DNA of 64,000 bases from Bacteriovoracaceae bacterium (GTDB taxonomy: Bacteria; Bdellovibrionota; Bacteriovoracia; Bacteriovoracales; Bacteriovoracaceae). Below the pieces are notes generated by a model. It saw only the letters and a list, made by a program, of their open reading frames with translations. It did no database searches and had not been told where the DNA came from. The stretch spans positions 17,990 through 81,989 of the forward strand of contig JADHTQ010000004.1 in the NCBI GenBank assembly GCA_016784965.1, given 5' to 3'. Both the position numbers and the translations under genes were made by a program. Shown in pieces: positions 1-38,866 of this stretch (positions are counted from its first letter, which is position 1; every line of letters begins with the position of its first letter).

Positions 1-1
1 A

Positions 2-9600: not shown

Positions 9601-12600
9601 GAACGATGTCTAAAAACATTTTACCACTCATAAGTGAGAGATCGTTGGCGTCTAATACATTGTAATTTGGGTCTAGATCATTAGTATCATCGATGTAGTT
9701 TGTATCAATCGTTGCACGGTCAAAGATCAGGTCTGTAAAGTCTGTGCCGTTAACATTGATTCGATTAGTCCACGCCATGGCCCGATTCTTTCCAAAATAG
9801 ACACGTATATTATCACTGGGAAATAATGTGGGATTATCAACCGAAACTCTGACTTCTACGCCTTGAATATCCTCGTCAATGCCTCCACCTTCATCTACAT
9901 CGAAGGAAAGATAGATTCCAGAACTGCGATTTGTTTTAAATACTTCGTCTTCTAAGACTATATAACTGTCATTCGCTGTATTGCGAGCAATTGTGGGTTT
10001 GTCATTAACTGACGTTACATCGAGCTTAAAAACTGCAGCAACGGTATTTACATCCCAACACTGAGGATCTGGCAGCCCATCTTGATCACATACATCAACA
10101 GTAAAAATAATACCGTTGGTGTCTTGTGTGGAATAATTGTCATTGGGGGTAACCTTTAATTGCACGCTTGCACTGTTGGCGTCAAGACCTCGATCATTTA
10201 CTGTAAAATAACTCACCGTCGTCGTAGAGGTCTGTGACATGGAGGTTCCACCCCATGTTGCCTCTAGGGTAAAGTTATCAAGCATATTTGTATCGTTGGG
10301 GTTGTCCACTGGTGTTGAGGTAACTTTAAGCTTCATTCCTTGATAGTCTTCACTTACTCCCCCTCCCTCATCAATTTGAAAGGCCACATCTAAGGTGTTA
10401 TTTTCTAAAATAGTGAACGCATTGGGATCACTGGGCACTAAAGCTATGGTGGGCAAGTCATCATTTGGATCCCAGTCAATTGTAAAAGTCTGATAAACGT
10501 CAAAGGTCCGTGGTGTTGCACTTTCATCAGATAACTCTACCTTAAACTCTACTGTCCCATTGTAATCAACATTGGAGCTAAGAGAGATTTCTACTGGTAT
10601 GTTGGCATCACTGTCATGAGTACTAGCACCTGCTGCCTCTGTACTGGTATATACATTTGATCCACTGCCACCTACATTGATATCCAGCTCATCATTTACT
10701 ACACTTTGATCGCTTGATGTAATCCTAATGGTTACTTGTTGATCATCTTCATCAGCTCCCCCACCTTCATCCAAGGTTAGAAAAAAGTTTACTGGACTGC
10801 CTTCTGGTATATTGTTGCGATTGAGCAAAACATTTGGTTCATAAAAAACAGGAGGGTCATCAACTGGTTGAATTGTCACCCTTAGTGTAACATTGGGATC
10901 CTCATCGATATCTGGAACTTGTCCATCATCACTGATGCAAATTGTAAGGTCTACAGGTGTGGGGGGATCTTGGCTAGTGGTGTTTATGTCTGGGTTTGCC
11001 GGTAAAAAAGAAAGTGTCAGAAGTGATGAGTTGGCATCACTACTTCCATCGCCCACATAATAGACCAGGTAATTAGGGTCAGTGTTGCTTCTAAGTAAAG
11101 TCGTGCCTCCCCACTTGGCCTGTATATCTGAGAGACTAACAAAGTTTGAGTCACTTGTATAAACTCTCAGAAAAATGCTTTGTGAGTCTTCAGCACTGCC
11201 TCCACCTTCGTCTATTAGAAGGTTGGCATCATGTGGGATAGTGATACCTTCATCTATAGTTATGTTAAAGTTTTCTTGCGAAGAAATTGTTGGCTCATCA
11301 TTTACATCTAAAACAATAATTTTAAAGTTTTTGCTCACAACTCCAGGTTCGGCTGGATCCCAAGTCATCGTCTCTGAATCTTTAAGAAGCATTGTAAATG
11401 AAACTGGTGTTTCAGAGTAGACATGTTCCCCATTTGCCACTAACTCCAACCGCAGTGGAAAGTTTGAGGAATCTACACTGCCATCACCTATAGCAAAAAC
11501 ACCATTTCCATCTGCCACGATACTACTGCCGTTCCAAGAGGCAGTAACATCATTGATATCAAAAACACTTGGATTGCTGCTTGATAATTTAAACTCTAAC
11601 GACTGATAGTTTTCAAAATCCAAGCCTCCTTCATCTGTAGTGAAACTAACAACTGCATTATTTGGATCATCTTCATTAATTGTTAATGCCTCACCAGTAT
11701 AATCTGGATCTGAAATAGTCGGAGGATCGTTTACTGGGTTTATCGTTACATTAAATGATACTTTTTGTGATGTAGGCCAGTCATCGTTATCATTGGACTC
11801 GTTGACTGTGACCGTAATCAAAACAGGTTCAATATTTCCGGTTACAAGTGAAGTTGAGGTGGCATCAGTTGGAGGTGTTATATTTAGCTGCAAATCACTA
11901 ATGAGAGCATCCATATTACCATCTCCCACAAAAAACGTTTCGGTGGGAGTGTCGCCTGATCTACTTAAAGTAACTCCATTCCATACTGCACTAATTGCAG
12001 AAGTTGGTATTTGCTGGATATTACTCGATGTTACCTGTATTGCTAATGATTGGTAGTTTTCACCGCTACTGCCCCCCTCATCTATTCTAAATTTGTGGCC
12101 TATTAAACTAGTATCTTCGAGGATATTGGCGTCACCAGACAGGTTTACTATGGTTGGCCGGTCATCAATTGATGCCCATGTAAGCTGTCTTGTCTCTATC
12201 GTCTTATTGATGCCATCATCTACTTCGATCGTAAAATTTAAAGTCCCTTCAAAGTCGGGATTTACTCCGGGAGTAACTTTCACGGAAATTAACGAAGAGT
12301 TTGCATCCTCATCGTCAGGCTCAATAAATGTATTGGTTCTTGTATCATTTACATCAATGTGGGCCCTACTATCTACTACCGCCTGATTTGGTGCAGTTAT
12401 TGTAACCTGTACTCTTTGTCCATCTTCATCTTCTCCTCCACCTTCATCAACACGAATATTAAAGTTAATATCTGCTCCCTCAGAAGCACGAAGCAAATCT
12501 GGGGTCACACTAACTAATTTTGGCGAATCATTATCTGCATTAATTGTCCAGTTCAAAAAGGCAGGACCAGCATAAGTAGGGGCAAAATTTGGGTCACCAC

Positions 12601-13912: not shown

Positions 13913-14030
13913 CGCGGACAATCCTCCGCATAATTTATCGGTATTTTTGGCATTTAACTTTAAAATCAAAGGGTTGTTGTGGCCCTGTTTGCCAATTTTT
14001 AAGTGCCTAGGGCCCAAACAAAGCATTTAG

Positions 14031-15383
<1,353 letters not shown>

Positions 15384-15397
15384 ACCGGAGGCACATT

Positions 15398-15934
15398 GTG
15401 AGTGTGGTGGAATATATTTCCAAAAAAGAAATTGATAAAGCTGTTTCTAGGTTAGCAAAAAAAATCACCTCTGATTATAACGATGAAGAGCTTGTTATAA
15501 TAGGTATTTTAAATGGTAGTTTTATTTTTTGTGCAGATCTGGTGCGTAAGATTCAGTTACCTCTTATAGTAGAGTTTTTGGCCGCTTCATCTTATGGTGA
15601 TAACACTACAAGCTCTGGTAAAGTTGATATCACCTATGACCTGAAAAAAAATATTTATGATAAACATGTTCTAATTGTCGAAGACTTAATCGACACAGGA
15701 CATACCATCAAATACTTACAAGAATACCTCAAATGTAGAAGACCTAAGTCTTTAAAAGTGGCAACCTTACTTACCAAACCTGCAAGAAGAGTGCACAACC
15801 TCAAGATTGATTATATTGGACTTGAAATTGAAGATCGCTTTGTAATCGGTTATGGTCTCGATTTTGCGGGCAAATACCGAGAGCTACCATTTATTGGCGT
15901 TTATCAAGAAGATGCTGATGAAACCCCTTCTTAA
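15398..15934 (+). CDS. hpt: hypoxanthine(-guanine) phosphoribosyltransferase
   Basis: VLIVEDLIDTGHT PRPP-binding motif, 178 aa, typical Hpt length and layout. GTG start preceded by GGAGG. Confidence 0.85.
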   Translation: MSVVEYISKKEIDKAVSRLAKKITSDYNDEELVIIGILNGSFIFCADLVRKIQLPLIVEFLAASSYGDNTTSSGKVDITYDLKKNIYDKHVLIVEDLIDTGHTIKYLQEYLKCRRPKSLKVATLLTKPARRVHNLKIDYIGLEIEDRFVIGYGLDFAGKYRELPFIGVYQEDADETPS

Positions 15935-15940
15935 GTTAAA

Positions 15941-17425
15941 TTAGCGGGATATCACACCTGATGCTTCAGAATGCTCACTTCTGGCCCTTTTTGATCTTGG
16001 CACAGACCAGTGTAATAGCTCAGCTTGACATGCCCTAAAGTCTTTTGCGTTTTTACATGTGCAAAGTAGCAGCTGGGATGTAAATGGTTCCCTTGTAAGT
16101 GAGCCACTATCTTGTGTACACCGAATTGGATGGGCACATAAATCACAATCAGACATTCCCTGTGTGGTATCTTTTGCTGGTGAAAAATCACTTACACAGG
16201 TATTACCTGGAAAAACGGGGACACCGCCCTGACAGGCCTTATCTGTTAAAAAATCTTCTTGAAAGTTACTAATGGCAAGCTTTTTGTTTACTTGCAGTGG
16301 TTTTAATTGCTCAATCATCTTTGGACTTGCATAACCGACAGTGGTTAGATCTTCAGTCATACCTCTAAGTTTTGCATGCCAGTTCACGCACTTAACTAAA
16401 ACTTTGTTACAACCCCACTCATTATTCATCTCTTCCACCTGACAGTTTTGCTTACTCATAAGTGGCCTCATAACCATCTGTATTCTTTTTTTCAAAGTGG
16501 TGCAAGGATCAGTATACCCCTTTTTGGAGGCCTTTCTATCAATTTTTTTATCACAATATAAAAGTACTTGCTGCCTTAAATTTTTAAACTTATTAAACTT
16601 ATCTTCATTATTTAAAATTTCATTTATAATTTCTTCACTGTTGTCTCCAGCAACTTCAGAGCAGGTATCACTAAGATTTTTATAGCGACTCTTGCGCCAG
16701 AAATCTCCACTTTTTGATAGTACACAAAATCCTTTTGTACCTTTGATACCAGAAGCATTTCGAATGAGGTTGCCCTTGGGTTTGTTGCCAAAAAGCACCG
16801 GATTACAGCGAATAGCGCCCTTTTTGCCACAACTTTTGTATGCCTGAGACTCAAGTTTTACACCGCTGGCAGAAAGCATCTGCTGCCTTTTACTTTTGAT
16901 ATTTCTATTCCATGGTGAGTAACAAACTCTATTGTTTGTAGTGGTAACAGATGGCCAACCCCCAAAAAAGCAAACACTACGACTATTTCTCGCGTATACA
17001 ACATCTAAAACATAACTCTCAAAGTAGGTGGTCACTTGCTCAGCAGTACTGGGGATGTGTGGTGTAAACTCACCTTTTTCATACTCTATGACAAAATCAA
17101 CATAAGCTCGATGGAGTTTTGCGAGCGCTGGTATTTTCATGGCCCGAATAACTGGATCGGGCAAATCTAAGTAATCAAACTTGTGAGGTGGAGTAAACTT
17201 ATTTATAAACTGAACTTTTTGATTTTGATGAAGTTTATTAGTAGAAATAATATCTTTTCTTAAAACCTCGTATACTTGACCGCGATAGTCTTCAATGATT
17301 ACTCGTTTTTTATCAAAACTCTTAATCAAACCATCAACTATGTTTTTTTTGAAGTGTCCAGCAATGCTATGCTGGCAATTTACAACCACTAAAACAATAA
17401 GTAACTGCTTTATCATTTTTTTCAT
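15941..17425 (-). CDS. secreted cysteine-rich hypothetical protein
   Basis: Signal peptide MKKMIKQLLIVLVVVNCQHSIAG. Many Cys residues are spread over 494 aa, and no known motif is recognised. Confidence 0.5.
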   Translation of the reverse strand: MKKMIKQLLIVLVVVNCQHSIAGHFKKNIVDGLIKSFDKKRVIIEDYRGQVYEVLRKDIISTNKLHQNQKVQFINKFTPPHKFDYLDLPDPVIRAMKIPALAKLHRAYVDFVIEYEKGEFTPHIPSTAEQVTTYFESYVLDVVYARNSRSVCFFGGWPSVTTTNNRVCYSPWNRNIKSKRQQMLSASGVKLESQAYKSCGKKGAIRCNPVLFGNKPKGNLIRNASGIKGTKGFCVLSKSGDFWRKSRYKNLSDTCSEVAGDNSEEIINEILNNEDKFNKFKNLRQQVLLYCDKKIDRKASKKGYTDPCTTLKKRIQMVMRPLMSKQNCQVEEMNNEWGCNKVLVKCVNWHAKLRGMTEDLTTVGYASPKMIEQLKPLQVNKKLAISNFQEDFLTDKACQGGVPVFPGNTCVSDFSPAKDTTQGMSDCDLCAHPIRCTQDSGSLTREPFTSQLLLCTCKNAKDFRACQAELLHWSVPRSKRARSEHSEASGVISR

Positions 17426-17437
17426 ACATTCCTCATT

Positions 17438-18232
17438 TTAATCATCAAGGTCACCAACCCATAGATCATGGCCAAAACCGCGTCCACGTTTTTTATTGAT
17501 AGACTTGATAATCGCAATCTCTTCTTTACCACTAAAAGTTGACTTTTTTCCTGTAAATCTGGAAGACCCTTGGGGAGAGCCAACACAGCGAAAGTCCTCT
17601 AAAGAAGCTGTTTCAATTTTACCAGTTTGTATATTTTCCACAAATAATCGACTATGACCACTACCTCGCAATATTTCTTTGGCCCGATAGTTTTTATTTT
17701 TTGCAACAACTCCATGGCTACAAAGTAGATTCTGTCCAAGAGTACTAGTGCCCATATGCTTTGGAGACAGTGATATCCACTCACTTCCACTATAAATGAT
17801 TTGGCTATTAAATTGCTTTTGAAACTCATCTTCTAGAGTTGGCCAGTTAAAAGATGGGGTATTTAAAAACTTACAACCTCTTGATCTACCCATTAAGTAT
17901 GAACTTAAAGCACTTGGACAACTATTACTGGTTACCCTACAAGAAATCATACGATATGCTGTCGTACCAGTTGGTGCCAACAAGTAGTTGACTCTATCTC
18001 TTTTTTTTATACGAGCAATATTTTTTTTGCTTGCTGTACATTTTGCCATTCCTACACAAAACTTATTTCTGTTAAATTTACATTTTGCATTACTAGCATC
18101 TGTCTCACAGCTAACAAGAGACGGCTCTCCACTTGACCAACGACAACTATAAGCAGAAACAGAAGCAGCAGCATATATGGAGTAACTAAAAAAAATAGAT
18201 AGGCCCAAAGTAATTAGACATTTTTGCATCAT
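17438..18232 (-). CDS. secreted cysteine-rich hypothetical protein
   Basis: The start is placed at the ATG at 18232, 8 nt after AAGAGG. Signal peptide MMQKCLITLGLSIFFSYSIYAAAS. Many Cys in the mature part. Separated by 12 nt from the downstream Cys-rich gene. Confidence 0.5.
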   Translation of the reverse strand: MMQKCLITLGLSIFFSYSIYAAASVSAYSCRWSSGEPSLVSCETDASNAKCKFNRNKFCVGMAKCTASKKNIARIKKRDRVNYLLAPTGTTAYRMISCRVTSNSCPSALSSYLMGRSRGCKFLNTPSFNWPTLEDEFQKQFNSQIIYSGSEWISLSPKHMGTSTLGQNLLCSHGVVAKNKNYRAKEILRGSGHSRLFVENIQTGKIETASLEDFRCVGSPQGSSRFTGKKSTFSGKEEIAIIKSINKKRGRGFGHDLWVGDLDD

Positions 18233-18413
18233 TTTCATTTCCTCTTTAAAACGACTACAACAGTCGGTCTTTAACACACCCTCACCCCATAATCTTATGA
18301 CATATAATGATGAATTGCAGGAGGCAATATTTGCACATTAACCCTTAAAAATTGCCCACTGACAACATTGACCAAAAGCTGAGAATACAATACCCTATTA
18401 CTTAATACATCTC

Positions 18414-19328
18414 ATGGAAGAAGCGTATATGAAGGAAACCAAAATACCTACGGGCAAAGTACAGCTTGAATTAGACATTGAAACTCCTAAAGAAAAGGAT
18501 CGCAATTTTGATAAAGGTGGAAGAAGTTTTTACTTTTTTGACTTTGATGACAATATTTTAAACCTGTTAACTCCTATTGTACTATTTCACAAAGAGACCA
18601 AAGAAGAAAAGTTAATAAGCTCAGAGGCCCTAGCAAAAGAGGGGCAAAATGTTGGCAAAAGTGGGGAATATCAAAATTATGAATTTGATTATGACGACAG
18701 CATTGGTTCTTTCCGCTATTTTCGAGACCTTAAATTGGGAGTACTCGAGCGGCTTAGAGGAAGAAAACAATATTTTGTCAATGATGTCGCCAAAGCGTTG
18801 ACAAGGCCCCATGAGGAGTGGAAAGGTCCCTCATGGGACTACTTTACATATGCAGTTTATAACAAAAGACCTATTTCAATTATTACAGCAAGGGGCCATA
18901 ACCCGCGCACAATTAAAGACGGCATTAGGGTACTACTAAATGAAGGACACCTTACCAATCCACCAAACTACCTATCAATTTTTCCTGTAAGTAATCCCGA
19001 CATACGTAGACAATTGTTAGGGTATGATGGAATGGCCGATACAGCTGCCTTGAAAAAATTGGCCATAAAAAAATCTGTAGAAACTGCTATCTTACAATAC
19101 GGCAACAATCCCCACCATCGCTTTGGCATGAGCGATGACGACATAAAAAATATCGAGTTAATTACTCAGGCAATGGTTGATTTAAAAAAAGAGTATCCTC
19201 TTATGTCTTTTTTTGTTTTTAACACCAGTGGTGGAATTTGTCGGCGTACTGAAATTTTTGAAGATCACTTAGATATAAAAGAAGATGAGGTATTGGTTGA
19301 TGGCCACCCCTCTCTTTTTGATTTTTAA
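18414..19328 (+). CDS. hypothetical protein, possible HAD-superfamily hydrolase
   Basis: FYFFDFDDNIL resembles HAD motif I (DxDx[T/N]). IITARG resembles motif II and GMSDDD resembles motif IV. The start could also be the ATG at 18429. Confidence 0.35.
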   Translation: MEEAYMKETKIPTGKVQLELDIETPKEKDRNFDKGGRSFYFFDFDDNILNLLTPIVLFHKETKEEKLISSEALAKEGQNVGKSGEYQNYEFDYDDSIGSFRYFRDLKLGVLERLRGRKQYFVNDVAKALTRPHEEWKGPSWDYFTYAVYNKRPISIITARGHNPRTIKDGIRVLLNEGHLTNPPNYLSIFPVSNPDIRRQLLGYDGMADTAALKKLAIKKSVETAILQYGNNPHHRFGMSDDDIKNIELITQAMVDLKKEYPLMSFFVFNTSGGICRRTEIFEDHLDIKEDEVLVDGHPSLFDF

Positions 19329-19400
19329 AATTTGATTTAAAAATTATATTTATTGCTTTATACTTTGTAAGTAATAAAAATTCTTCAACTTAAGGTAGAG

Positions 19401-20648
19401 ATGAAGCTATTTCAACAATTTGTCCTCTTGAGTATCTTTGTACTATTACCCCGCTTTGCATATGCAATCATAAGTGTTCAGACAACAGCATCAAGTGGCT
19501 ACTATAAGGATATAAATCAACAAGAGCACGTTTCAATGTTTTTAAATTGGAGAGTAAATCACATTCACCAAAGTGGAATTGAAACTGTACTAGATTTTGG
19601 TTTAGACAACAATTTCATACGCGATAAATGGGCCATATACCCGTATCAACTCTATGTTACATACCCGCTTAGTAATGGTTTTGCACATGCTCCTTTTTAT
19701 AGATCTAGAATTCAGCTGGGCCGCCAATTATTGACTGAAGGGTTTGAGTTAGATGTAATTGATGGCGCGGTTATACCTTATTATTTTACCCCAGAATTTG
19801 GAATTAAGATATTTGCAGGTGGAGTTCACATCCCAGAAGAGACCAATTTAACTTTTGAAGACCAAATTTATGGAACCTCCATTTTTCTTAAAAAATGGGA
19901 TACTCTAATTCGCTTTGGGCCAATCATTAAGCAATCGAAGGTTAATGGTGGTTATAATGGCACCTATCAAGCATTTTTGTCCTTGGCCAAAACTTGGGAT
20001 CATTTATATTTGTCACCTACACTTCTACTTAAAGATCAGTGGGATATTGAATATGTTAAACATGACCAGGCTTTAGCCGAACTGCAATTATCTAGGAAAC
20101 GAAACTTCCTCGCTTTAAGTTATACATCTCGTCGATTAGAGTCTAATTTTTTAAAAGATCGAAGTTTTATTTTCAAGTTATTTTCAATCTCAGCGGGAAA
20201 AACGGCTTCAATCTCTTATCTATATGATTGGCCTATTCAAGATAATGTTAGGCTACAAATAAATGCCAAAGCAATGAAGGTCGACTACATTTCTCCCAAG
20301 GGAGAAGAAACCGGTGATAAAGAAGAGCTTAGCGCCAACTTGTGGTTTGATAAAATTAATATTGCTCCAGTAATCACTAGAATTTCTTCTTATGGTGGAG
20401 AACTTTGGGATTTTGGTTGTGTCTTTAAGTATGCCTTTAATCCCGAGATGGTTCTAAGGGTCGAGGGTGATGCTTTGTGGGTAGACAAAATTAATGGAAT
20501 AAAGGGATGGGCCTATAATGTAAGAAGTGGCTTGGACTTTGATATTTTACCGCGTTTTCGTACCAATCTATTGGTAGAAGTGCAAAGAAATCATCTTTTT
20601 GAATTTGATGTAAGGGCGATAGCATATGTTACGCATTTTTATTACTAA
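19401..20648 (+). CDS. outer-membrane beta-barrel protein (porin-like), first gene of the multihaem cytochrome operon
   Basis: Signal peptide (LSIFVLLPRFAYA), alternating amphipathic beta-like segments and an aromatic C-terminus (AYVTHFYY). AAGGTAGAG RBS. Confidence 0.55.
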   Translation: MKLFQQFVLLSIFVLLPRFAYAIISVQTTASSGYYKDINQQEHVSMFLNWRVNHIHQSGIETVLDFGLDNNFIRDKWAIYPYQLYVTYPLSNGFAHAPFYRSRIQLGRQLLTEGFELDVIDGAVIPYYFTPEFGIKIFAGGVHIPEETNLTFEDQIYGTSIFLKKWDTLIRFGPIIKQSKVNGGYNGTYQAFLSLAKTWDHLYLSPTLLLKDQWDIEYVKHDQALAELQLSRKRNFLALSYTSRRLESNFLKDRSFIFKLFSISAGKTASISYLYDWPIQDNVRLQINAKAMKVDYISPKGEETGDKEELSANLWFDKINIAPVITRISSYGGELWDFGCVFKYAFNPEMVLRVEGDALWVDKINGIKGWAYNVRSGLDFDILPRFRTNLLVEVQRNHLFEFDVRAIAYVTHFYY

Positions 20649-21258
20649 GCAACTGCTTACCATTAGTATGGTTGTTTTTACAAGTTATGCGATGTCTTTT
20701 GACGGCCATCAAGGACAGGTCCTATCTTCTTACCAAATACCAAAAATGGTAAAGCCATTATCAAAGCTTTTTTCACATAAAGCGCATATGCCTCATCTTG
20801 AAACACTCAATTTAACTTGCCAAAATTGTCACAATTTCTCTATTAAAAACAAAATTAAAGGACCACTGTCAAAGCCTGTCCAGGGACGATATTTAAAACC
20901 GGCAAAGGCCATTTGTCACCAATGTCACTTGGGTAGAATTTCTCTGCCAAAACGTAACCAGTGCACCCTCTGCCATAAAAACAAAAGCCAAGGATTAAAG
21001 CCAATCGATCACGCCGTAGACTGGGCGGCAAGACATGGTAGAATTGCTCAATTTGATTCAGACTCTTGTACTAAATGTCACAGAAAAAATGACTGTTCTG
21101 ATTGCCACCTGCACAGAATGCCAATGAAAAAAAATGTTCATAGAGCAAATTTTAGATTTTCTCACTCTATTGAGGCAAGGTTAAATCCACAAAAGTGTAC
21201 CAGTTGTCACCAATATGCAAGGTTTTGTATGAATTGCCACTTAGGAAAGGCCCAATGA
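20626..21258 (+). CDS. periplasmic heptahaem c-type cytochrome
   Basis: Seven CXXCH motifs: CQNCH, CHQCH, CTLCH, CTKCH, CSDCH, CTSCH, CMNCH. Signal-like N-terminus. Overlaps the upstream barrel gene by 23 nt. Confidence 0.8.
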   Translation: MLRIFITKQLLTISMVVFTSYAMSFDGHQGQVLSSYQIPKMVKPLSKLFSHKAHMPHLETLNLTCQNCHNFSIKNKIKGPLSKPVQGRYLKPAKAICHQCHLGRISLPKRNQCTLCHKNKSQGLKPIDHAVDWAARHGRIAQFDSDSCTKCHRKNDCSDCHLHRMPMKKNVHRANFRFSHSIEARLNPQKCTSCHQYARFCMNCHLGKAQ

Positions 21259-21530
21259 AAATAATAATTATTTTTATCAGCGTTCTAATTTTATCATGTG
21301 ATGTAGATCGACAATTTGAAAAGAATAATTTTGATACAACTAACTTAAACCTAACACAACAAAATCATCCATACGGATATGCTAAAAAAGAGTGCTTTTA
21401 TTGCCATGTAAGGTCCAACATTCATCAACAAAATACTTTAGGAACAGATCTTTTAGATGCTGCTCGCGGTTATACAATGATTGGTGACGTTACAAGGTGC
21501 AAAGACTGTCATGGGGACAATGGGCTATGA
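21255..21530 (+). CDS. small dihaem c-type cytochrome, lipoprotein-like
   Basis: ATG at 21255 forms an ATGA overlap with the upstream stop. MKIIIIFISVLILSC is lipobox-like. Two CXXCH motifs (CFYCH, CKDCH). Confidence 0.7.
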   Translation: MKIIIIFISVLILSCDVDRQFEKNNFDTTNLNLTQQNHPYGYAKKECFYCHVRSNIHQQNTLGTDLLDAARGYTMIGDVTRCKDCHGDNGL

Positions 21531-22030
21531 AAAATCGACCTTCTGCTTTAATCATAGTTCTTATTTGCTGGATTAATGTTTCCAGTGCTTATGGAAATAG
21601 CTCTGGGAGATTAGATCCTCATGGAAAAAAAGAGATTACATCTGTTAATTTTAATCAGGTCACATGTAGTATTTGCCATGAAGAAAACAAGTTACATACA
21701 GTAAGTGCCAAGATCATTTCTCACTGCCAAACTTGCCACAATAAATCTCCACATAGTGGGCTCAAAGAGCACCTAGGCAAAGATTTGACTAAATTGAACA
21801 TTGGCATAAAGGGCAATTTAAATTGCCTTTCATGCCATCGCCCCCATCGCTTTGTTATCAAAGATAAAAAGCAACATAAATTGATAAAAAGCAACAAATC
21901 TCCATCTTTAATTTTGCGACAAAAGTGGACAAAGGAAGAACTTGCTGACAATTTTATAGTTAAAGAAAACAAAACCCCCATGTTAAGAAGATCTTGTAGT
22001 GATTGCCACACCAAGGAAAATTTACAATGA
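21527..22030 (+). CDS. periplasmic tetrahaem c-type cytochrome
   Basis: ATG at 21527 forms an ATGA overlap with the upstream stop. Signal peptide MKNRPSALIIVLICWINVSSAYG. Four CXXCH motifs (CSICH, CQTCH, CLSCH, CSDCH). Confidence 0.75.
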   Translation: MKNRPSALIIVLICWINVSSAYGNSSGRLDPHGKKEITSVNFNQVTCSICHEENKLHTVSAKIISHCQTCHNKSPHSGLKEHLGKDLTKLNIGIKGNLNCLSCHRPHRFVIKDKKQHKLIKSNKSPSLILRQKWTKEELADNFIVKENKTPMLRRSCSDCHTKENLQ

Positions 22031-24009
22031 ATACCTCAAATCTTCTTTTTTGTTCAATGCTTTTATTGCTAAGCTCTAGGCTGCTTGCCGGTGGAGAGCT
22101 GCAGTTGCGCTATAAATTTAGAACAAAAGTAATTTCACCATCGATCACAACAAGATGTGGTACTGATATTTGTGTATATAGCTTGTACAACAATCAAATT
22201 ATTAGGCTTGATAAAAACTCGGGGAAAGTAAAGTACAACATTGATCTAGGCAAAAGGATATCTAACAATTTTAAAGCGACTGCTATCGAATTCTTGCAAA
22301 ATAGTTTTCTAATTGCAGGAGTATTAAAATCTGACCCAAAAAGCTATCCTCTCTACCTGTTACCTCTAACTGATAGTGCAAAAAAAATCACTTGGCCAGG
22401 TGAGCAAAAAACCCATATTAGAGATATTAACTGCACCCAAAGAGGTTGCTTGCTGTTTGCAAACAAAGTCCATATCAGCAAAAACCAAAAAAATTGGCAA
22501 GTGTTCTCTATTCCACGAAGTGTTGACATATTGCCGGTTGGCGGCGATCTAAAGAGCAACCCATTTTTTAATTGGCAAGAAAAATTTATCGTAAGCAGAG
22601 GGAGGTATACAAGTAGTACCACGGATAATGATAATAACTTATTTGTTTTAAACTCCCTACGCAGCACTGTTGCATTTACAGATGATTCAAAGTGGGATAA
22701 CTGGAAAAAATGGGGAAAGTGGGGCGTTTGGGAAGGACAAATGATGTCTCCTAAGGCCATAGCCTACCTTAATAACTACAATGCTGTAGCAGTCGCCGAC
22801 TCCGGTCTCAAATTCATTTTTGTCTTCGATAGACAAGGCCTATATATCGGTAAAATTTCTAGCAATCCAGATAATGAAAGGCGCTTTTTATATCCTATTG
22901 ATGTGGTGGCCATTAATGATGATCTGTTTGTCGCAGATTTTTTTGCTGGTGAGCTGATTGCAATCAATATTGTTAGTCTCACTAAACCAGATAACAAAAG
23001 GCCAAAAACTGTAGACGAATTTCTCCACAAAGACTTACTAAAAGACCTACTAGACACTCCACAAGCAAAACTTAATTACTCTAAAGAAAAATGTCTAGCT
23101 TGCCATGATGGCTCTGAGAGTTTTAACTTAGATAAGTTTGTAGGTATAAAAAATCACCACCCAATAAATGTTGAAGTAAAATCAACAATTAGCTTGCCTT
23201 TAAAAGATGGAAAGTTCATCGCTTGTAATACATGTCACGATCAACATCACGACAAAACTTTGCGCAAAGAATATAAGAGTCTATGCCTTACATGCCACCA
23301 GGATAAAGCTAAACAATCTTCCAATCATTTCAACCTAAACCTGGATTTAAAGTCAAAATTAGTGCCAGGGAAAAAAGTTTCAACTTGTAAGTCGTGTCAC
23401 GCTATCCATGAAAGTGAACATAACCTAAAAATAAAAACTAACTCCCAGTTATGCTTAGACTGTCATGGAACAAAGCAAGCACCAATCTCCCATCCTTTTA
23501 AAGAAGATCACGTCCATTGCCTATCATGTCACGCACTCCATGGAGCAAAAAAATCACATAAATTTGCAAGGCATTCCAAGCCAGAAGTTAGTGATACCTG
23601 TGTAACTTGTCACTATCAGCTAAAAGTTCACCTGGGCAAAAATAAGCATTTATCTAAAAAAGATGGAAAAGTTGCCCATCCCTGGCCAGGTGGTGAAGGC
23701 GTTTGTATGGATTGTCATAATCCCCACAAGCGTAAAAAGACGGTTAAAAAACTATGTCTTAGCTGTCATAAAGACAAAAAAAGAAGCCATGTCAAAAATA
23801 ACATTATCAGTAAAACAAAAAGGGCGAAAACGGTAAAACTTGATAAGGGTCAAATGAGCTGTTTTACATGTCACAACCACCACGGAATAAGTGAGAATAA
23901 AAAATTCATAAACAACAAAAAAGATATTTTAGGGTTTTGTTCAAGCTGCCATGGGGCGAAGTCCTCTAAACTACTTAATAATTATCATAAAAGATTAAAA
24001 AGAAAGTGA
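22027..24009 (+). CDS. NHL/beta-propeller-like domain fused to an undecahaem c-type cytochrome
   Basis: ATG at 22027 forms an ATGA overlap with the upstream stop, followed by a signal peptide. The N-terminal ~330 aa has NHL-like strands (YPIDVVAINDDLFVADFFAGELIAINI). The C-terminal half has 11 CXXCH motifs, many in CxxCHxxH paired context. Confidence 0.75.
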   Translation: MNTSNLLFCSMLLLLSSRLLAGGELQLRYKFRTKVISPSITTRCGTDICVYSLYNNQIIRLDKNSGKVKYNIDLGKRISNNFKATAIEFLQNSFLIAGVLKSDPKSYPLYLLPLTDSAKKITWPGEQKTHIRDINCTQRGCLLFANKVHISKNQKNWQVFSIPRSVDILPVGGDLKSNPFFNWQEKFIVSRGRYTSSTTDNDNNLFVLNSLRSTVAFTDDSKWDNWKKWGKWGVWEGQMMSPKAIAYLNNYNAVAVADSGLKFIFVFDRQGLYIGKISSNPDNERRFLYPIDVVAINDDLFVADFFAGELIAINIVSLTKPDNKRPKTVDEFLHKDLLKDLLDTPQAKLNYSKEKCLACHDGSESFNLDKFVGIKNHHPINVEVKSTISLPLKDGKFIACNTCHDQHHDKTLRKEYKSLCLTCHQDKAKQSSNHFNLNLDLKSKLVPGKKVSTCKSCHAIHESEHNLKIKTNSQLCLDCHGTKQAPISHPFKEDHVHCLSCHALHGAKKSHKFARHSKPEVSDTCVTCHYQLKVHLGKNKHLSKKDGKVAHPWPGGEGVCMDCHNPHKRKKTVKKLCLSCHKDKKRSHVKNNIISKTKRAKTVKLDKGQMSCFTCHNHHGISENKKFINNKKDILGFCSSCHGAKSSKLLNNYHKRLKRK

Positions 24010-24016
24010 ACATTTT

Positions 24017-24181
24017 ATGACTAAAAACTTAGAACACATTCTATCAACAATATTGGCAAAAAAGACTAACAGAATTTTACTGGCCATTGTTTCTGTCGGG
24101 TTGGGCCTATTTATATCTTTATTTACGGTGTTTCAAGTTCTATTTTTGGCCAAAGTTCTTCCCCATGGAGGTCTTTGGTGA
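24017..24181 (+). CDS. unannotated 54-aa single-pass membrane protein
   Basis: Below the ORF-track size cutoff. ATG at 24017, 8 nt after the preceding stop. Translation is MTKNLEHILSTILAKKTNRILLAIVSVGLGLFISLFTVFQVLFLAKVLPHGGLW, with one clear TM helix. Its TGA overlaps the GTG at 24178 of the next gene (GTGA). Confidence 0.5.
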   Translation: MTKNLEHILSTILAKKTNRILLAIVSVGLGLFISLFTVFQVLFLAKVLPHGGLW

Positions 24182-24906
24182 AACCAATTTGGAAACATAC
24201 CATAACAATCTTCAAGTATATGCTGCCCTTTTTGGCCTTTGGCGCCCTACTTGGAGTCTATCCTGGCTATAAAGTTTACGAGCATGTTTGGAAAGACTCC
24301 AGCTTTTGTTTTAACTGCCACGTTCACGATTATGCTCATGTATCATGGACCCAAAGCTCTCACAAGGAGTTAACCACTTGCCACGATTGTCACCATCAGC
24401 CCTTGAAGGCCTATATGCTAGATGCTTACCATTATTTTATTCATGGTGCAAAATTCCCTAGAGACTTAGATCATGTTCCTCATGTTCCCAAAGATATCTG
24501 TGAAGCATGTCACTTAACCAACCCAAAAGATACCTCAACAATTACAGGTCCACTTTCGATGGACGAGATAAAGAAACTACCAAAGGTAGACCAGAAATAT
24601 CTACACAGGGTACACCTGGCAAAGAAAGTAAAACTAAAACTTTTCAAAGAATATAAAATGGGTATGAAAGAGAGAAGGGCCGAAGAAGTTGTCCTTCCCC
24701 TAACCACTCAAAAAGCAGACAAGGCAAGGCCCGTTACCTGTTCTGATTGTCATGGAGGCCTTCCCAATCGTGGACACAATTTTTCAGTAGCGGATAACTC
24801 ATGCTTACGATGCCATCCAAAAATTCACAATACCAAAATGGGGCAAAAATATGGATGTCGAAATTGTCATTTTCAAGACTTCATTAAACTATATGAGAGG
24901 AAATAA
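24178..24906 (+). CDS. NapC/NirT/NrfH-like membrane-anchored multihaem quinol dehydrogenase (six CXXCH)
   Basis: N-terminal TM helix (YMLPFLAFGALLGVYPGY) is followed directly by CFNCH, as in the NapC/NirT family. Five further CXXCH motifs follow (CHDCH, CEACH, CSDCH, CLRCH, CRNCH). Start is non-ATG: GTG at 24178 or TTG at 24175. Confidence 0.65.
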   Translation: MKPIWKHTITIFKYMLPFLAFGALLGVYPGYKVYEHVWKDSSFCFNCHVHDYAHVSWTQSSHKELTTCHDCHHQPLKAYMLDAYHYFIHGAKFPRDLDHVPHVPKDICEACHLTNPKDTSTITGPLSMDEIKKLPKVDQKYLHRVHLAKKVKLKLFKEYKMGMKERRAEEVVLPLTTQKADKARPVTCSDCHGGLPNRGHNFSVADNSCLRCHPKIHNTKMGQKYGCRNCHFQDFIKLYERK

Positions 24907-25706
24907 TGAATAAATTAATATTGATATTAGTAGTGACATTTTTTTGTATTCAACAAGTATTTGCTGACCAAAAGTTTGTCTATAAGGCCCGCAAGTCATT
25001 TGTTTTTTCTGCTAAATTTATTTATACCGTAAAAGAGTCGCAAATTGATCAAACAAAAGTTAAAACCGTAGAGACTTCAGGCAACATAAAGGCATTTGGA
25101 ATTTCAGTATCTACAATTCAACACCGAAGCATCAACAATCACAGCGACTTTCTTCCAGTTATCAACACCCAGTGTGATATTTCATCTGATCGCAAAAAGT
25201 GCTATTCACAAAAATTTACAACTCTGCCTAACGATCCCTACACTACTGTCTTAAAAGAAGATGGGCTCTATTTATTTAGACAACACAATGACGAACCATT
25301 TGGTCTTAAAAACTTCGATGAAACTTTTGCCAACACTCAATCTGTAGATATCGCACACTTTTATCCAAGTTTTGATCCACTCACCGATAGGTTACATGAT
25401 TTTTCCTCAATTATACTAACGGCCAAAGACTTACAGTTATCAAATCAGTGGCCAGAATCATATGCTTTCATTGCAAACCAAGAAAATGTGGTCAAAATTA
25501 AGTTCACTCTAGTAAAACAAAGCAATAACTTGCAAGAAATTAAATTAGATATTGTGCCCTCACCCAATGTTGAAGTGAGGGCCAAAAACCTTCCCAATAA
25601 GATTCTTTTGGATACTAAAAAAGGGGTCGTATTACAAATTCACGGCAATGTCCCAAAAGCTGGTGCATATACCCTCAAACTTGATAAATCAGCAAGCTCT
25701 TATTGA
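24906..25706 (+). CDS. secreted hypothetical protein, last gene of the cytochrome operon
   Basis: TAATG 1-nt overlap with the upstream stop. Signal peptide MNKLILILVVTFFCIQQVFA. No haem motifs. Confidence 0.5.
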   Translation: MNKLILILVVTFFCIQQVFADQKFVYKARKSFVFSAKFIYTVKESQIDQTKVKTVETSGNIKAFGISVSTIQHRSINNHSDFLPVINTQCDISSDRKKCYSQKFTTLPNDPYTTVLKEDGLYLFRQHNDEPFGLKNFDETFANTQSVDIAHFYPSFDPLTDRLHDFSSIILTAKDLQLSNQWPESYAFIANQENVVKIKFTLVKQSNNLQEIKLDIVPSPNVEVRAKNLPNKILLDTKKGVVLQIHGNVPKAGAYTLKLDKSASSY

Positions 25707-26014: not shown

Positions 26015-26275
26015 TTATGCCTTTTTGTCGCTTATAAATACTTTTCTAAGAACATCATTAATTAGAGAAGTGTAAGAAACATTATTCTTTTTTGCGATAC
26101 TTCTAATTGTCTCAAGTAGGTCTGCGTCAAAATTAGCGGTAATTTTTTCCTTGGTTGGCTTACTAAAACAAGGGAGCGACTTAATATCAATGTCTATTTT
26201 TCCAAAATAACTATCTGACATATTGTCTACCTTATTCAAAGCATTTTTCAAGTTAGGTTTATTTCTTTTTGCCAT
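26015..26275 (-). CDS. ribbon-helix-helix antitoxin-like protein (BrnA/CopG-like)
   Basis: The C-terminal ITANFDADLLETIRSIAKKNNVSYTSLINDVLRKVF matches the BrnA/RHH pattern (beta strand, helix, helix). GGGAGG lies 6 nt before the ATG. Overlaps the upstream small gene by 17 nt. Confidence 0.6.
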   Translation of the reverse strand: MAKRNKPNLKNALNKVDNMSDSYFGKIDIDIKSLPCFSKPTKEKITANFDADLLETIRSIAKKNNVSYTSLINDVLRKVFISDKKA

Positions 26276-26516
26276 GAAGGACCTCCCACTGATTCATTAA
26301 GAGATCATAGTTTCTGTAAACATATCTGATGATCCCTTTAACCGATTTTTTAGAAAACCTGGTCTTTCCCGATACTTCCAAGGTTTCTAGATATATCTTT
26401 ACTTCGGCATTGTCTCCTTTAGAGATAATATGTACATGTGGAGAACCATGTTCACGAGGGGGAGAATATACCTTTATTTGCCATTTATTGTTTTCTAAAA
26501 CGGTTCTTGTTTTCAC
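26259..26516 (-). CDS. DUF4160-family small protein (toxin-like partner)
   Basis: IKVYSPPREHGSPHVHIISKGDNAEVKIYLETLEVSG...NYDLLMNQWEVLHG follows the DUF4160 pattern (H-x-PPHxH, then a helical C-terminus ending in W). The ORF has no ATG. Candidate starts are GTG at 26516, or TTG at 26594 / GTG at 26591, and none has a clear SD. Confidence 0.55.
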   Translation of the reverse strand: MKTRTVLENNKWQIKVYSPPREHGSPHVHIISKGDNAEVKIYLETLEVSGKTRFSKKSVKGIIRYVYRNYDLLMNQWEVLHGKKK

Positions 26517-26785
26517 TGATAAATTATACCATATATTAATATGGCATTCAAGACATATATTGTTCCATATAAAGGTATGGCTGTATGGCACCAAGGTTTA
26601 TGAAATAACAGTAGCTTGGTAGTAAATTAGCTCTATGAAAAAAGTACAATTACACAGTGTTTTTCCTATTAACATAAATACATCAAAGAAAAGTTAAAGG
26701 TGGCAACCTAACTTTTTATTTTAAGTATAGGGCCTAACCGACAAAAAGTATTTTGTTTGGTTCTTGTTACTTATTAAGATTAACT

Positions 26786-27516: not shown

Positions 27517-29037
27517 ATGTTAAAAAAAATGGCGCTTGTATTTTTGCTTCCATTTGTTTTTTACAGCTGTGGCAAAGAGGAAATATCCAAGGAAAATTTA
27601 AAACTTAATCTCTCAGGTATTATTGTCGGTGACCTTGACTGGACTAGCATCACTACCCTGCCCACCACTGATCCAAAACGGATTGTAGGAAGTGCTGTTG
27701 GTGATGTGGCAATTCCAGCAAGAGGAACTAGGTGTACTGGCTTTTTAATTACTCCCAATGTTGTAATGACAAATCAACATTGTATTAGGTCTGCCAGTGA
27801 CGCAGAAGGTGTAACAGTTGCTTTTAAACACCTCGAAGGAGTGTCTGAAAGTAATTGGGAAAAGATTGATTGTAGTACTTTTATTGGTAACAATACAACG
27901 TTGGACTTTGCACTGCTTGAGTGTGTCGGGAATCCTGGAGAACGCTTTGGTGTAGCTTCTTTGGCATCAAGAGAAGCTGTGGTAGATGAATCAATTTATG
28001 TCGTTCAACAAAACTGTGATTATTATAATGACAGAGACTGTGATTGGAGTAAAAAGTTTTCGCTGGGAAAAGTGCTCGAAGTTGATGATGAAGTATCTCA
28101 TAATGCAGATACTCTCGGTGGCTCTTCTGGTAGCCCTGTTTTATCTGCACAGGACAATCTGGTAATAGCTATCCACCATGCAGGCTATGGCAACAATGGT
28201 TATGGCCGTGGATATAAAAACACCGGTGTTGCTATGTCATCTATTGTGCCCGTTTTAATTGCTAACTACCCCCAGTTAAACTTAGGAGGTACAGATCCTG
28301 TGGACCCCGTTGATCCGGTTGATCCGGTAGACCCAGTCGATCCACCACCTACAGATCAAACAGAACCCAATAATGATTCGCAATCGGCAACATTGATCAG
28401 TAGTACTCCGGCAGAGATTACAGACAAGGCCATTGATGAAAGTGGTGACCTCGATTACTACAAAGTGGTAATTGATGGCAGTGGCAAACTAACTGTAAAT
28501 TTAAGCTTTACTCACAGAAATGGTGATCTTGATTTAAAAATCTTAGATGCAAGCAAGAGCGTTGTGGGCACTTCTGCAGGAGTTAAAAACTCGGAAAAAA
28601 TTGAAATTGATGTCGAGTCTGGCGAGTATTTTATCATGGTTTATGGTTACAGAGATGCCGCAGGTGCATATCAACTCAATGTCGATACCCAGCTTACAGT
28701 GGTAACAAATGATGAGCCAAACGATTCAAGGGAAACGGCAACCAAAGTCGCTCTGCCTTATAGTGGGACTGAAAAAGAGATTCATGATAGCAGTGATGTG
28801 GATTATTATAAGTTTACTATAGGAAGCGCAAAATCTGTCTCTGCGAAGATCATGTTTTCCCATAGTGTCGGAGACCTTGATTTAAAACTATACAACAGCA
28901 GCAATAAGCTTGTAGCAAGTAGTACCAGTGTCAAAAATGAGGAAAAGATTGTTAAGTTTTTGGCAGCTGGAAGCTACTATCTTCGTGTATATGGATACAG
29001 AGGGGCAGTAGGCGAGTATGACATGCTGCTAGAGTAA
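27517..29037 (+). CDS. secreted trypsin-fold serine endopeptidase (V8/Glu-specific-like) with two PPC (pre-peptidase C-terminal) domains
   Basis: TGFLITPNVVMTNQHC (catalytic His) and GGSSGSPV (catalytic Ser). A (PVD)5 linker. Two ~100-aa modules start with EPNNDSQSAT / EPNDSRETAT and contain DLDYYK / DVDYYKF and GDLDLK motifs. AGGAAGGAG RBS and lipobox-like FYSC. Confidence 0.75.
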   Translation: MLKKMALVFLLPFVFYSCGKEEISKENLKLNLSGIIVGDLDWTSITTLPTTDPKRIVGSAVGDVAIPARGTRCTGFLITPNVVMTNQHCIRSASDAEGVTVAFKHLEGVSESNWEKIDCSTFIGNNTTLDFALLECVGNPGERFGVASLASREAVVDESIYVVQQNCDYYNDRDCDWSKKFSLGKVLEVDDEVSHNADTLGGSSGSPVLSAQDNLVIAIHHAGYGNNGYGRGYKNTGVAMSSIVPVLIANYPQLNLGGTDPVDPVDPVDPVDPVDPPPTDQTEPNNDSQSATLISSTPAEITDKAIDESGDLDYYKVVIDGSGKLTVNLSFTHRNGDLDLKILDASKSVVGTSAGVKNSEKIEIDVESGEYFIMVYGYRDAAGAYQLNVDTQLTVVTNDEPNDSRETATKVALPYSGTEKEIHDSSDVDYYKFTIGSAKSVSAKIMFSHSVGDLDLKLYNSSNKLVASSTSVKNEEKIVKFLAAGSYYLRVYGYRGAVGEYDMLLE

Positions 29038-34780: not shown

Positions 34781-34834
34781 TTTGTACCTCCATACATATT
34801 TTCTATCAATTTCAACTAGTTTTCAACTATAACT

Positions 34835-35578
34835 TTAATACTGCAACAGAACTGTCGTTTGATTGTCCATATTGCCTCTTGAATTAGAAATCTTAAACAA
34901 TTCTTCAATTTTGCTCTCTAAGTTGCTATGTGCAGCTTCTAAAATATACCTAACCTCCTTATCACTTATTCTGCCATAAACCCCATCTGTCATCATAATG
35001 ATTAAATCACCTGGCAAGATCCTATATTCTTTAATCATAAGCCCCAGTTGATCAAACATTCCAAACCCATTAAGTGGAGTCGTATAGAGGTGTCTGGAGT
35101 TAAAATAGTCTTGTGCAAGAGTACCTATACTTTCAGGATTTATAATTGTCTCCAGTGCTCCTTTTCGCAGAAGCAAGGTTTTGCAGTTACCAACATAAGC
35201 AAATGTTGCTACATTTTCGGCCATGGCTAAACAAATGGCCGATGCCCCTCCTTTACCAGACATTTCCTGCTTTGAATTTTCATTTTTAATTAATTCATGT
35301 GAGTGATGCATGGAATTTATTAGAGCATTTCCTTCTACTAAATATTTTGGACTATAAAAAAAAGGAAAGGTAGAATCTGGGTCGCCCCCGATTTTGGTAT
35401 ACATTGCTTTAATGTTTTCTTTTAACAGTTTGACACATTTATCTCCAACTCCAGTACCACCAAAACCATCGTAAATAGCATATAGTTTGTTCAACAAATC
35501 AATATCATAATCGTCTTCATTTACCTGAAGATATGGTCCCTGGGAAGTCTTTGCACAGTAGCTTTTAAGTGTCATCAT
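34835..35578 (-). CDS. PP2C-family Ser/Thr protein phosphatase
   Basis: YAIYDGFGGTGVG, IIMMTDGVY and NMDNQTTVLLQY match the PPM motifs. 247 aa. Confidence 0.8.
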   Translation of the reverse strand: MMTLKSYCAKTSQGPYLQVNEDDYDIDLLNKLYAIYDGFGGTGVGDKCVKLLKENIKAMYTKIGGDPDSTFPFFYSPKYLVEGNALINSMHHSHELIKNENSKQEMSGKGGASAICLAMAENVATFAYVGNCKTLLLRKGALETIINPESIGTLAQDYFNSRHLYTTPLNGFGMFDQLGLMIKEYRILPGDLIIMMTDGVYGRISDKEVRYILEAAHSNLESKIEELFKISNSRGNMDNQTTVLLQY

Positions 35579-35581
35579 AAT

Positions 35582-38859: not shown

Positions 38860-38866
38860 TTACTTT

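Follow-up and report, generated by a model that had tools for sequence, protein, structure and literature searches.

Bdellovibrio-like bacteria are treated as oxygen-respiring predators. What is an operon with thirty haem motifs behind an outer-membrane barrel doing in the genome of one of them? Such an operon lies at positions 19401-25706 of the stretch analysed here (the window, 64,000 nucleotides), which belongs to a Bacteriovoracaceae metagenome-assembled genome (MAG) and thus to the kind of host that had been supposed from the letters. An initial annotation had likened the operon to the extracellular electron-transfer conduits of Geobacter and Shewanella. On balance, we favour the reading in which seven of its genes, g1-g7, carry electrons across the cell envelope by a pathway of the porin-cytochrome kind, with a conduit through the outer membrane in which electrons could flow in either direction. 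We set out the locus and its conservation, the proteins, the proposed path and the explanations that compete with it.

The operon and its conservation

Eight open reading frames (ORFs), all on the + strand and overlapping or closely spaced, occupy the locus exactly where the initial annotation had placed them:

19401-20648, + strand: g1, 415 amino acids, predicted outer-membrane beta-barrel with a signal peptide, 22 strands, no plug and the C-terminal aromatic signal …YVTHFYY
20626-21258, + strand: g2, 210 amino acids, secreted heptahaem cytochrome of the c7-repeat type with a signal peptide and 7 CXXCH motifs
21255-21530, + strand: g3, 91 amino acids, dihaem lipoprotein with 2 CXXCH motifs, the lipobox LILSC and a C-terminal CHGxNGV
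21527-22030, + strand: g4, 167 amino acids, secreted tetrahaem cytochrome of the c3 type with 4 CXXCH motifs
22027-24009, + strand: g5, 660 amino acids, signal peptide followed by a six-bladed NHL beta-propeller (residues ~25-320) and an 11-haem MtrA/DmsE-like domain (residues ~350-660) with 11 CXXCH motifs
24017-24181, + strand: g6, 54 amino acids, single-helix membrane micropeptide with an invariant C-terminal VLPHGG[LIF]W
24178-24906, + strand: g7, 242 amino acids, membrane-anchored hexahaem cytochrome with 6 CXXCH motifs, distant relative of NapC/NirT/NrfH and candidate quinol dehydrogenase or quinone reductase
24906-25706, + strand: g8, 266 amino acids, secreted protein with a signal peptide and no haem, a lineage-specific passenger

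Recounting the CXXCH motifs gave 0/7/2/4/11/0/6/0 for g1 to g8, that is, the 30 motifs in five proteins that had been counted before (7+2+4+11+6), and no CXXXCH or CXXCK variant was found in g1-g8. Chance clustering of the motif is ruled out, as the remaining ORFs of at least 100 amino acids in the window contain one CXXCH in total among 18,778 residues. The junctions also agree with the initial annotation: g1 and g2 overlap by 23 nucleotides (20626 versus 20648), ATGA overlaps join g2 to g3 (21255), g3 to g4 (21527) and g4 to g5 (22027), a GTGA overlap joins g6 to g7 (24178), and g7 and g8 share one nucleotide in TAATG (24906). The only correction concerns the gap between g5 and g6, which had been given as 8 nucleotides and is actually 7 (24010-24016). 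A purine-rich, Shine-Dalgarno-like stretch lies 6-14 nucleotides 5' of the start of each of the eight genes. Public gene calls begin g5 30 nucleotides later than the ORF (at 22057, giving 650 amino acids) and g7 42 nucleotides later (at 24220, giving 228 amino acids). For g7 we prefer the earlier GTG because it is preceded by GGAGG and because the membrane helix of all orthologues becomes complete with it. In the public record g1-g8 and the 304-amino-acid ORF upstream of them (g0), nine proteins with the locus tags ISR65_02485-02525, are all named 'hypothetical protein'. Our Pfam and NCBIfam scans covered the same nine. The identical contig has been obtained from independent samples.

The order of g1-g7 and the haem counts 7/2/4/11/6 are kept in at least nine Bdellovibrionota genomes, the order being judged at loci long enough to hold it. 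These genomes span Bacteriovoracaceae, Bdellovibrionales and Oligoflexia, and the proteins are only 30-50% identical. The 4-nucleotide overlaps and the 23-nucleotide overlap of g1 and g2 recur in several lineages, and all frames are intact. Scanning species-representative genomes with a five-sequence alignment of g1 returned seven loci, six of them in Bdellovibrionota/Bdellovibrio/Oligoflexia genomes and one in an unclassified 'uncultured bacterium' MAG; sampling around g7 added two more complete modules, in one of which g2 precedes g1. One Oligoflexia copy (L003) has a g5 shortened to 7 haems, and g6 was not detected in it. Both g8 and g0 are specific to this lineage and not conserved. The former is missing at all orthologous loci and occurs in the same species from other samples, and nothing related to it turned up in Pfam, NCBIfam or the PDB; for g0, too, the Pfam and NCBIfam scans gave no family. 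What had been described as an eight-gene unit is, as conserved, a unit of seven, g1-g7.

This unit has two parts, which are usually joined and are separable: a quartet on the side of the barrel (g1-g4) and a trio on the side of the membrane (g5-g7). One uncultured genome (L009) has g1-g4 followed by a 934-amino-acid protein with 26 CXXCH motifs and has no g5-g7, an arrangement that fits an outer-membrane module taking varied periplasm-spanning partners. The 26-CXXCH protein itself (L009 4912-7716) is made of g4-like repeats. Conversely, g5-g6-g7 stand alone in three genomes, with neither the barrel nor g2-g4. One of the three is that of the magnetotactic Bdellovibrionota FG-1 (L014), in which a true MtrB_PioB barrel and a 528-amino-acid cytochrome with 14 haems (L014 1-3217) lie 6-8 kb upstream of the trio, with three metabolic genes between. 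The g7 family, with 77 clusters, is wider than that of g1, and its divergent members are found in other contexts.

Outside the phylum, two contigs of 68-69% G+C encode homologues of g2 (E 1e-32), g3 (1e-18), g5 (1e-61, with 15 haems), g6 and g7 in the same gene order, behind a 407-428-amino-acid protein that has no family and takes the position of g1. The two proteins in that position are homologous to each other (E 8e-8). On one of these contigs (L013) the module is flanked upstream (1-4715) by genes for an iron-sulphur protein, a 936-amino-acid molybdopterin enzyme and a Nitrate_red_del chaperone, and downstream (11073-15577) by genes for an iron-sulphur protein, a molybdopterin-like protein and an NrfD protein, the last set resembling a Qrc or an alternative complex III. 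This context hints that the module can connect to different quinone-side complexes.

The barrel, the cytochromes and the membrane side

The AlphaFold2 model of g1 (mean predicted local distance difference test score, pLDDT, 81; predicted template-modelling score, pTM, 0.71) is a 22-strand beta-barrel that begins directly after the signal peptide, at residue 23, has no plug domain and has a longest loop of ~21 amino acids. From the standard barrel-geometry relation for 22 tilted strands we calculated a backbone diameter of ~40 Å. This is the size class of the TonB-dependent receptors, which need a plug of ~150 residues; a pore ~40 Å wide and unplugged therefore calls for an occupant. Neither Pfam nor NCBIfam has a family for g1, and no Pfam match was obtained at E<=0.1. 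Its own family comprises 16 clusters in a 90% database, every named one from Bdellovibrionota, and 158 representatives at E<1e-3 in a 50% library, 57 of them below 1e-30.

Three of the four genes that follow the barrel encode predicted periplasmic or lipid-anchored cytochromes. g2 scores above the Pfam cut-off for Cytochrome_C7 (33.6 bits), and the best PDB match of its family profile is the Geobacter dodecahaem GSU1996 (3OV0, E 7e-13), which puts g2 in the class of c7-repeat periplasmic carriers such as GSU1996. g4 is above the Pfam cut-off for Cytochrom_c3_2 (29.9 bits). In g3 the lipobox cysteine is kept in 9/9 orthologues and also in the high-G+C relatives.

The fourth, g5, is a fusion. 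Its residues ~25-320 were modelled as a six-bladed propeller (pLDDT >90) that superposes on the NHL domains of TRIM2/TRIM3 with a template-modelling (TM) score of 0.78, and NHL repeats were found by sequence as well. The propeller has a single invariant polar residue, D258, and therefore no catalytic constellation. The haem domain gave 90.7 bits with Paired_CXXCH_1 of Pfam, 62.9 bits with the DmsE-family model TIGR03508 (cut-off 192) and 62 bits with the GSU2203-family model (cut-off 325), the last two from NCBIfam. With a profile of ten Bdellovibrionota orthologues, the best cytochrome match in the whole PDB was 6R2Q chain A (E 1.3e-19). This chain carries the misleading molecule name 'Cystathionine beta-synthase' in the results table; the alignment, in which one CXXCH motif follows another up to a terminal CLNCHSQVHGSN, shows that it is the decahaem MtrA of MtrCAB. 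On this profile match the haem domain of g5 is a remote homologue of MtrA, which occupies the MtrB barrel.

In g7 an N-terminal helix runs straight into CFNCHVHDYA, and five further haem motifs follow; a hydrophobic helix followed by F-C-x-x-C-H-V-H-D-Y-A was seen in alignments of 7-31 orthologues. Against the curated models g7 stays below threshold, with 17.2 bits for PF03264 (cut-off 24.1) and 33.3 bits for the NrfH model TIGR03153 (cut-off 134.2). Nevertheless, 30/31 members of its family match PF03264 at E<=0.01 (best 7e-7), and the family profile aligns with the NrfH structure 2J7A_C (E 0.0065) over the membrane helix and haems 1-3. The single sequence of g7 found nothing significant in the PDB; only the family profile reached NrfH. 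g7 is therefore a distant relative within the NapC/NirT/NrfH superfamily and not a member of one of its families. It is always preceded by the conserved micropeptide g6, which lies between the genes for g5 and g7 in each of the five orthologues aligned. The counterparts of g6 in the distant high-G+C relatives have 37-38 amino acids (L013 10439-10555; L012 10484-10597), and in one relative, of 69% G+C, LPHGGAW replaces VLPHGG[LIF]W. The histidine of g6 that would face the periplasm might ligate a haem or contribute to a quinone site.

Conserved histidines outside the haem motifs number 6 in g2, 2 in g3, 4 in g4 (plus one methionine), 13 in g5 and 8 in g7, for 7, 2, 4, 11 and 6 haems, respectively. 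Conserved distal histidines thus suffice for nearly all haems, which argues for electron transfer rather than catalysis: g2-g5 and g7 are predicted to be electron-transfer chains of bis-His haems, among which no open catalytic haem is evident.

The domain identities that had been proposed for single genes all hold up on these data. The outer-membrane barrel of about 400 amino acids is a 22-strand, plug-less barrel in the model; the lipobox agrees with a lipoprotein-like dihaem protein, the propeller model (TM 0.78 to TRIM3) and 11 CXXCH motifs with an NHL/11-haem fusion, and the single helix in the orthologue alignment with a 54-amino-acid transmembrane peptide. The NapC/NirT-like six-haem anchor is borne out by its helix and the 30/31 PF03264 matches, with the qualification that it is a distant relative below the cut-offs.

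Proposed electron path, known conduits and competing explanations

Folds, haem counts, haem ligands, lipobox, membrane anchor, remote homologies, synteny and modularity together point to the following path, in which the cellular locations of the proteins are those that we infer. At the inner membrane, g7, as a one-helix NapC/NrfH-like hexahaem protein, would exchange electrons with the quinone pool together with g6. It would pass electrons to g5, whose 11 bis-His haems may act as an MtrA-like wire and whose NHL propeller may be a docking platform, while the c7-type g2 and the tetrahaem g4 would ferry electrons across the periplasm. The plug-less barrel g1 would enclose a haem wire, as MtrB does around MtrA. 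Candidates for this wire are g2 and g4, with the MtrA-like domain of g5 as the alternative. A partner among g2-g4 is suggested because g1 never occurs without g2-g4 and once occurs without g5, and because g5 occurs without g1; g5 is suggested because its haem domain resembles the barrel-threading MtrA. At the outer membrane the dihaem lipoprotein g3 would make the terminal contact. Flow might be outward, with Fe(III), Mn(IV) or humics reduced at low oxygen, or inward, as uptake of the kind proposed for Uet and Mto.

Among described systems, the closest analogue by parts is the predicted Uet cluster of Tenderiales, together with the NHL/cytochrome clusters of Desulfovibrio ferrophilus. Uet (uetABCDEFGHIJ) is a predicted extracellular electron-uptake module of 'Ca. 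Tenderia electrophaga'/Tenderiales and some Gallionella, with a tetrahaem UetA, a barrel UetC, c7 trihaems UetD/E/G, NHL proteins UetH/I and an undecahaem UetJ (bioRxiv 10.1101/2022.05.06.490989; PMC10734462). We compared UetA-J (ALP54622-ALP54630) with g1-g7 by this published description. In both systems an undecahaem cytochrome with doubled CXXCH motifs comes directly after a six-bladed NHL propeller, as separate proteins in UetI-UetJ and fused in g5. Moreover, UetD/E/G would correspond to g2 as c7-type periplasmic cytochromes, the tetrahaem UetA to g4 and the outer-membrane barrel UetC to g1. Genes of System II cytochrome maturation adjoin the module in L003, where ResB/CcsA genes (15272-18429) follow it directly, as ccsAB follows uet. 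On the other hand, UetC is predicted to have 28 strands and g1 has 22; g0-g8 lack a peptidyl-prolyl isomerase like UetB, a cupredoxin like UetF and a further NHL protein; the NapC-like anchor, the micropeptide and the dihaem lipoprotein are all missing from Uet; and the gene order differs.

In Geobacter the ombB-omaB-omcB order is barrel, periplasmic multihaem cytochrome, lipoprotein cytochrome. g1, g2 and g3 are adjacent in the same order, with a barrel of ~400 amino acids, 7 haems against 8 and a lipoprotein cytochrome; OmbB-OmaB-OmcB, ExtABCD, ExtEFG and ExtHIJKL further resemble the cluster in the size class of the barrel (~20 strands) and in c7-type periplasmic carriers. They differ from it in that the lipoproteins have 5-12 haems and g3 has 2, and in that no family-level match was obtained with the NCBIfam models used as a proxy (GSU2203-family, 62 bits versus 325; nanowire_3heme, 28 versus 40). 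In addition, g1-g7 contain the NHL-undecahaem fusion and a quinol-side module of their own, whereas ImcH, CbcL and CbcBA of Geobacter are encoded away from the conduit genes.

With MtrCAB, MtoAB and PioAB the cluster shares a haem domain (g5) that is a remote homologue of MtrA, the logic of a barrel that houses a wire and a NapC/NirT-type partner comparable to CymA. However, g1 has no PF11854 match, 22 strands instead of 26 and 415 amino acids instead of ~700. PF11854 does detect such barrels in this phylum, since a true PF11854 protein was found in L014. In contrast to its Mtr counterpart, g5 has 11 haems and a propeller and reaches 63 bits against the DmsE-family cut-off of 192. The decahaem MtrC/OmcA is missing: the models for it gave sub-threshold PF22113 matches for g3 and g4, a 42.5-bit partial match for g5 and, with TIGR03507, 12 bits for g4.

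D. ferrophilus IS5 likewise encodes multihaem cytochromes with NHL propellers, in DFE_0448-0451 and DFE_0461-0465 (PMC5815863, PMC9769857). These clusters, which we likened to g1-g7 by description only, lack a barrel and encode the NHL proteins separately from the cytochromes. Finally, g7 has the single N-terminal helix of NrfH, NapC and CymA, with the first CXXCH at once and the second ~20 residues on, but six haems instead of four, a first motif CxxCHVH instead of CxxCHxM, scores below the curated cut-offs and g6 ahead of it. At curated thresholds no protein of g1-g7 belongs to the Mtr, DmsE, GSU2203 or NrfH families. The parallel that had been drawn with the Geobacter Pcc/Ext and Shewanella Mtr conduits therefore holds for the parts list and the roles and not for family membership, and the Uet and D. 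ferrophilus analogues had not been named. The cluster is best filed as a real, conserved and unannotated system of the porin-cytochrome kind that lies outside every named family.

Several observations weigh against a conduit across the outer membrane. The barrel model was built from an alignment of 16 sequences. Foldseek matched g1 to generic barrels of the PDB only (AlgE, pilus ushers including FimD, and Occ channels/OpdK) at TM scores of 0.4-0.5; MtrB was absent among the 50 top matches, and no homology of g1 to any known conduit barrel was detectable. The proteins of 407-428 amino acids that take the place of g1 on the high-G+C contigs are not demonstrably homologous to it: alignment with hhalign against the g1 alignment gave a probability of 0.1%, phmmer against 142 representatives gave no match, and a second-tier profile was marginal (hhalign probability 39%, E 3e-4, over 77 columns), leaving homology unproven. 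As to the occupant of the barrel, co-occurrence favours g2-g4 and homology favours g5. The sole lipoprotein cytochrome, g3, has only 2 haems and ~75 mature residues, far smaller than MtrC, OmcB or ExtC, and the operon encodes no large surface cytochrome. In this genome g3 has aspartate at position +2, which in E. coli keeps a lipoprotein in the inner membrane. The stand-alone trio bears on the cluster as a whole: since three genomes have g5-g6-g7 without the barrel, this half works without g1 there, and not all of the cluster is an outer-membrane conduit. In D. ferrophilus, strains deleted for the NHL/multihaem clusters showed no Fe(III)-oxide phenotype (PMC9769857).

Part of this evidence speaks for the main rival, a periplasmic respiratory or detoxifying system, which we regard as unlikely although it is the best of the alternatives. 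In such a system g7 and g6 would oxidise quinol, g5 would be the terminal periplasmic module, whose NHL domain would bind a substrate in soluble or colloidal form, g2 and g4 would serve as carriers or electron stores, and g1 would be a substrate porin. The trio that stands alone in three genomes would then resemble an NrfH-NrfA-type pair, the L013 module does lie between molybdoenzyme genes and an iron-sulphur/molybdopterin-like/NrfD complex, a large surface cytochrome is lacking, and the nearest Foldseek barrels of g1 are substrate channels and ushers. However, conserved bis-His ligands for nearly all haems leave no obvious open catalytic haem for a terminal module, and an NHL domain with one invariant polar residue has no catalytic constellation. 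The plug-less 22-strand g1 has no long constricting loop and far exceeds solute porins, with their 16-18 strands, in width, and the haem domain of g5 is closest to MtrA and unlike any reductase. Nor was a catalytic subunit (molybdoenzyme, NrfA-like protein, copper protein or NrfD) found within the window. A nitrite reductase of the NrfHA type is ruled out, as there is neither CXXCK nor an NrfA match, and so is an alternative complex III or Qrc, as the window has no NrfD, iron-sulphur or molybdopterin-like genes. In line with the initial annotation, no known periplasmic reductase system to which the operon would be orthologous was found.

The direction of flow raises a second alternative, in which the conduit takes up electrons, as has been proposed for Uet, Mto and Pio: Fe(II), reduced minerals or humics would feed electrons through g1 to the quinone pool, with g7 as a quinone reductase, or to a high-affinity oxidase in microaerobic life. 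With the same architecture and reversed flow, it is a variant of the conduit reading and not a true rival; as a specific claim we consider it rather improbable. Bdellovibrionota are in general aerobic or microaerobic. The parts list is nearest to Uet, which has been tied to cathode oxidation (bioRxiv 10.1101/2022.05.06.490989; PMC10734462), the FG MAGs of Bdellovibrionota are aerobic or microaerobic (PMC13200544), ResB/CcsA genes come after the module in one Oligoflexia copy, as ccsAB comes after uet, and in a bacterium from a ferruginous spring 6-8 kb separate a relative of g5-g7 from an MtrB_PioB barrel. Against uptake, nothing in the sequence fixes a direction, the Pfam and NCBIfam scans of the operon proteins found no cupredoxin or Cyc2-type partner, and NapC/NrfH relatives are mostly quinol dehydrogenases, although CymA-type proteins are able to run in reverse.

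Returning to the conduit reading, its boldest form would make the cluster a new class of outer-membrane conduit, with a 22-strand barrel family unrelated to the known conduits and an NHL/MtrA-like fusion, used by predatory Bacteriovoracaceae in predation or between prey encounters through the prey envelope or prey-derived redox molecules, or for mineral or humic respiration by an 'obligate aerobe' once oxygen is gone; this we hold to be far-fetched. Least credible is that a porin and unrelated cytochromes are chance neighbours or a decaying remnant with no common function: the sub-modules do occur apart and g8 is not conserved, but this explanation is effectively refuted by the synteny, since at least nine genomes share gene order and haem counts although their proteins are only 30-50% identical, and stands against intact frames, recurring 4- and 23-nucleotide overlaps and a contig recovered from independent samples.

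Surroundings of the operon and biological meaning

The other genes of the window are housekeeping or unrelated: purine metabolism, a giant LVIVD-repeat protein, proteases, an FHA/PP2C signalling set, ABC transporters and MreB. The 72-nucleotide AT-rich gap before g1 contains one candidate regulatory feature:

19336-19364, + strand: weak sigma-70-like candidate promoter TTTAAA-17-TATACT, 9/12 match

Promoter and terminator consensus matches in the region are in no excess over the shuffle expectation. No sigma-54 site was found upstream of g1, though one orthologous locus (L001, of the Bdellovibrionales) has a gene for a sigma-54 response-regulator activator after the module (16930-18366).

About 5 kb upstream of the operon, the ORF at 6644-14026 (- strand) encodes a giant protein of 2460 amino acids that contains LVIVD repeats and probably acts at the surface or in adhesion; an LVIVD-repeat protein is named as an attachment factor in the Tenderiales preprint that describes uet (bioRxiv 10.1101/2022.05.06.490989). 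Just downstream, at 26015-26594 (- strand), a CopG-antitoxin-like gene and a DUF4160 gene overlap and may be a pair of the toxin-antitoxin type. The stretches on either side of the operon, 15941-18277 (- strand) and 27517-29037 (+ strand), encode two cysteine-rich secreted proteins without a family (494 and 279 amino acids) and, in addition, a trypsin-like protease that is secreted and carries two PPC domains and a (DPV)n linker. Farther downstream, 33452-40432 (- strand) holds genes for a response regulator, a PP2C phosphatase and three proteins of 344-747 amino acids with FHA/YscD-like domains, and 51749-54953 (+ strand) those for a radical-SAM/SPASM enzyme and then an ABC exporter with a TPR tail. 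Small ORFs lie upstream of the latter pair, in a layout typical of modified peptides (ribosomally synthesised and post-translationally modified, RiPP-type).

A conduit had been called unexpected in Bdellovibrio-like bacteria. This needs tempering, because one Bacteriovoracia genome gave many 'DFE variant' and CbcL matches in a FeGenie survey (bioRxiv 10.1101/2022.03.26.485925) and magnetotactic Bdellovibrionota are reported to have true MtrAB homologues (PMC13200544). Our literature search found no description of the seven-gene module, its barrel family or its two-part structure, and for Bdellovibrionota only general mentions at the FeGenie level and the unrelated true MtrAB pair. The unusual lineage, the new barrel family and the NHL-MtrA-like fusion make the system distinctive, yet genome surveys keep yielding new cytochrome-barrel clusters. 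Current annotation pipelines miss it, as all nine proteins are called 'hypothetical'.

To the field of electron transfer the cluster offers a compact modular design, in which a quinol-side trio is joined to a barrel-side quartet, a new barrel family and an MtrA-like wire fused to a propeller; the modularity of g1-g7 is a natural experiment in conduit assembly and swapping. Extracellular electron transfer by g1-g7 is what we infer from these parts. If it is true, Bdellovibrio-like predators could respire or harvest electrons outside the cell, which would change the view of how they survive in sediments, biofilms and low-oxygen water.

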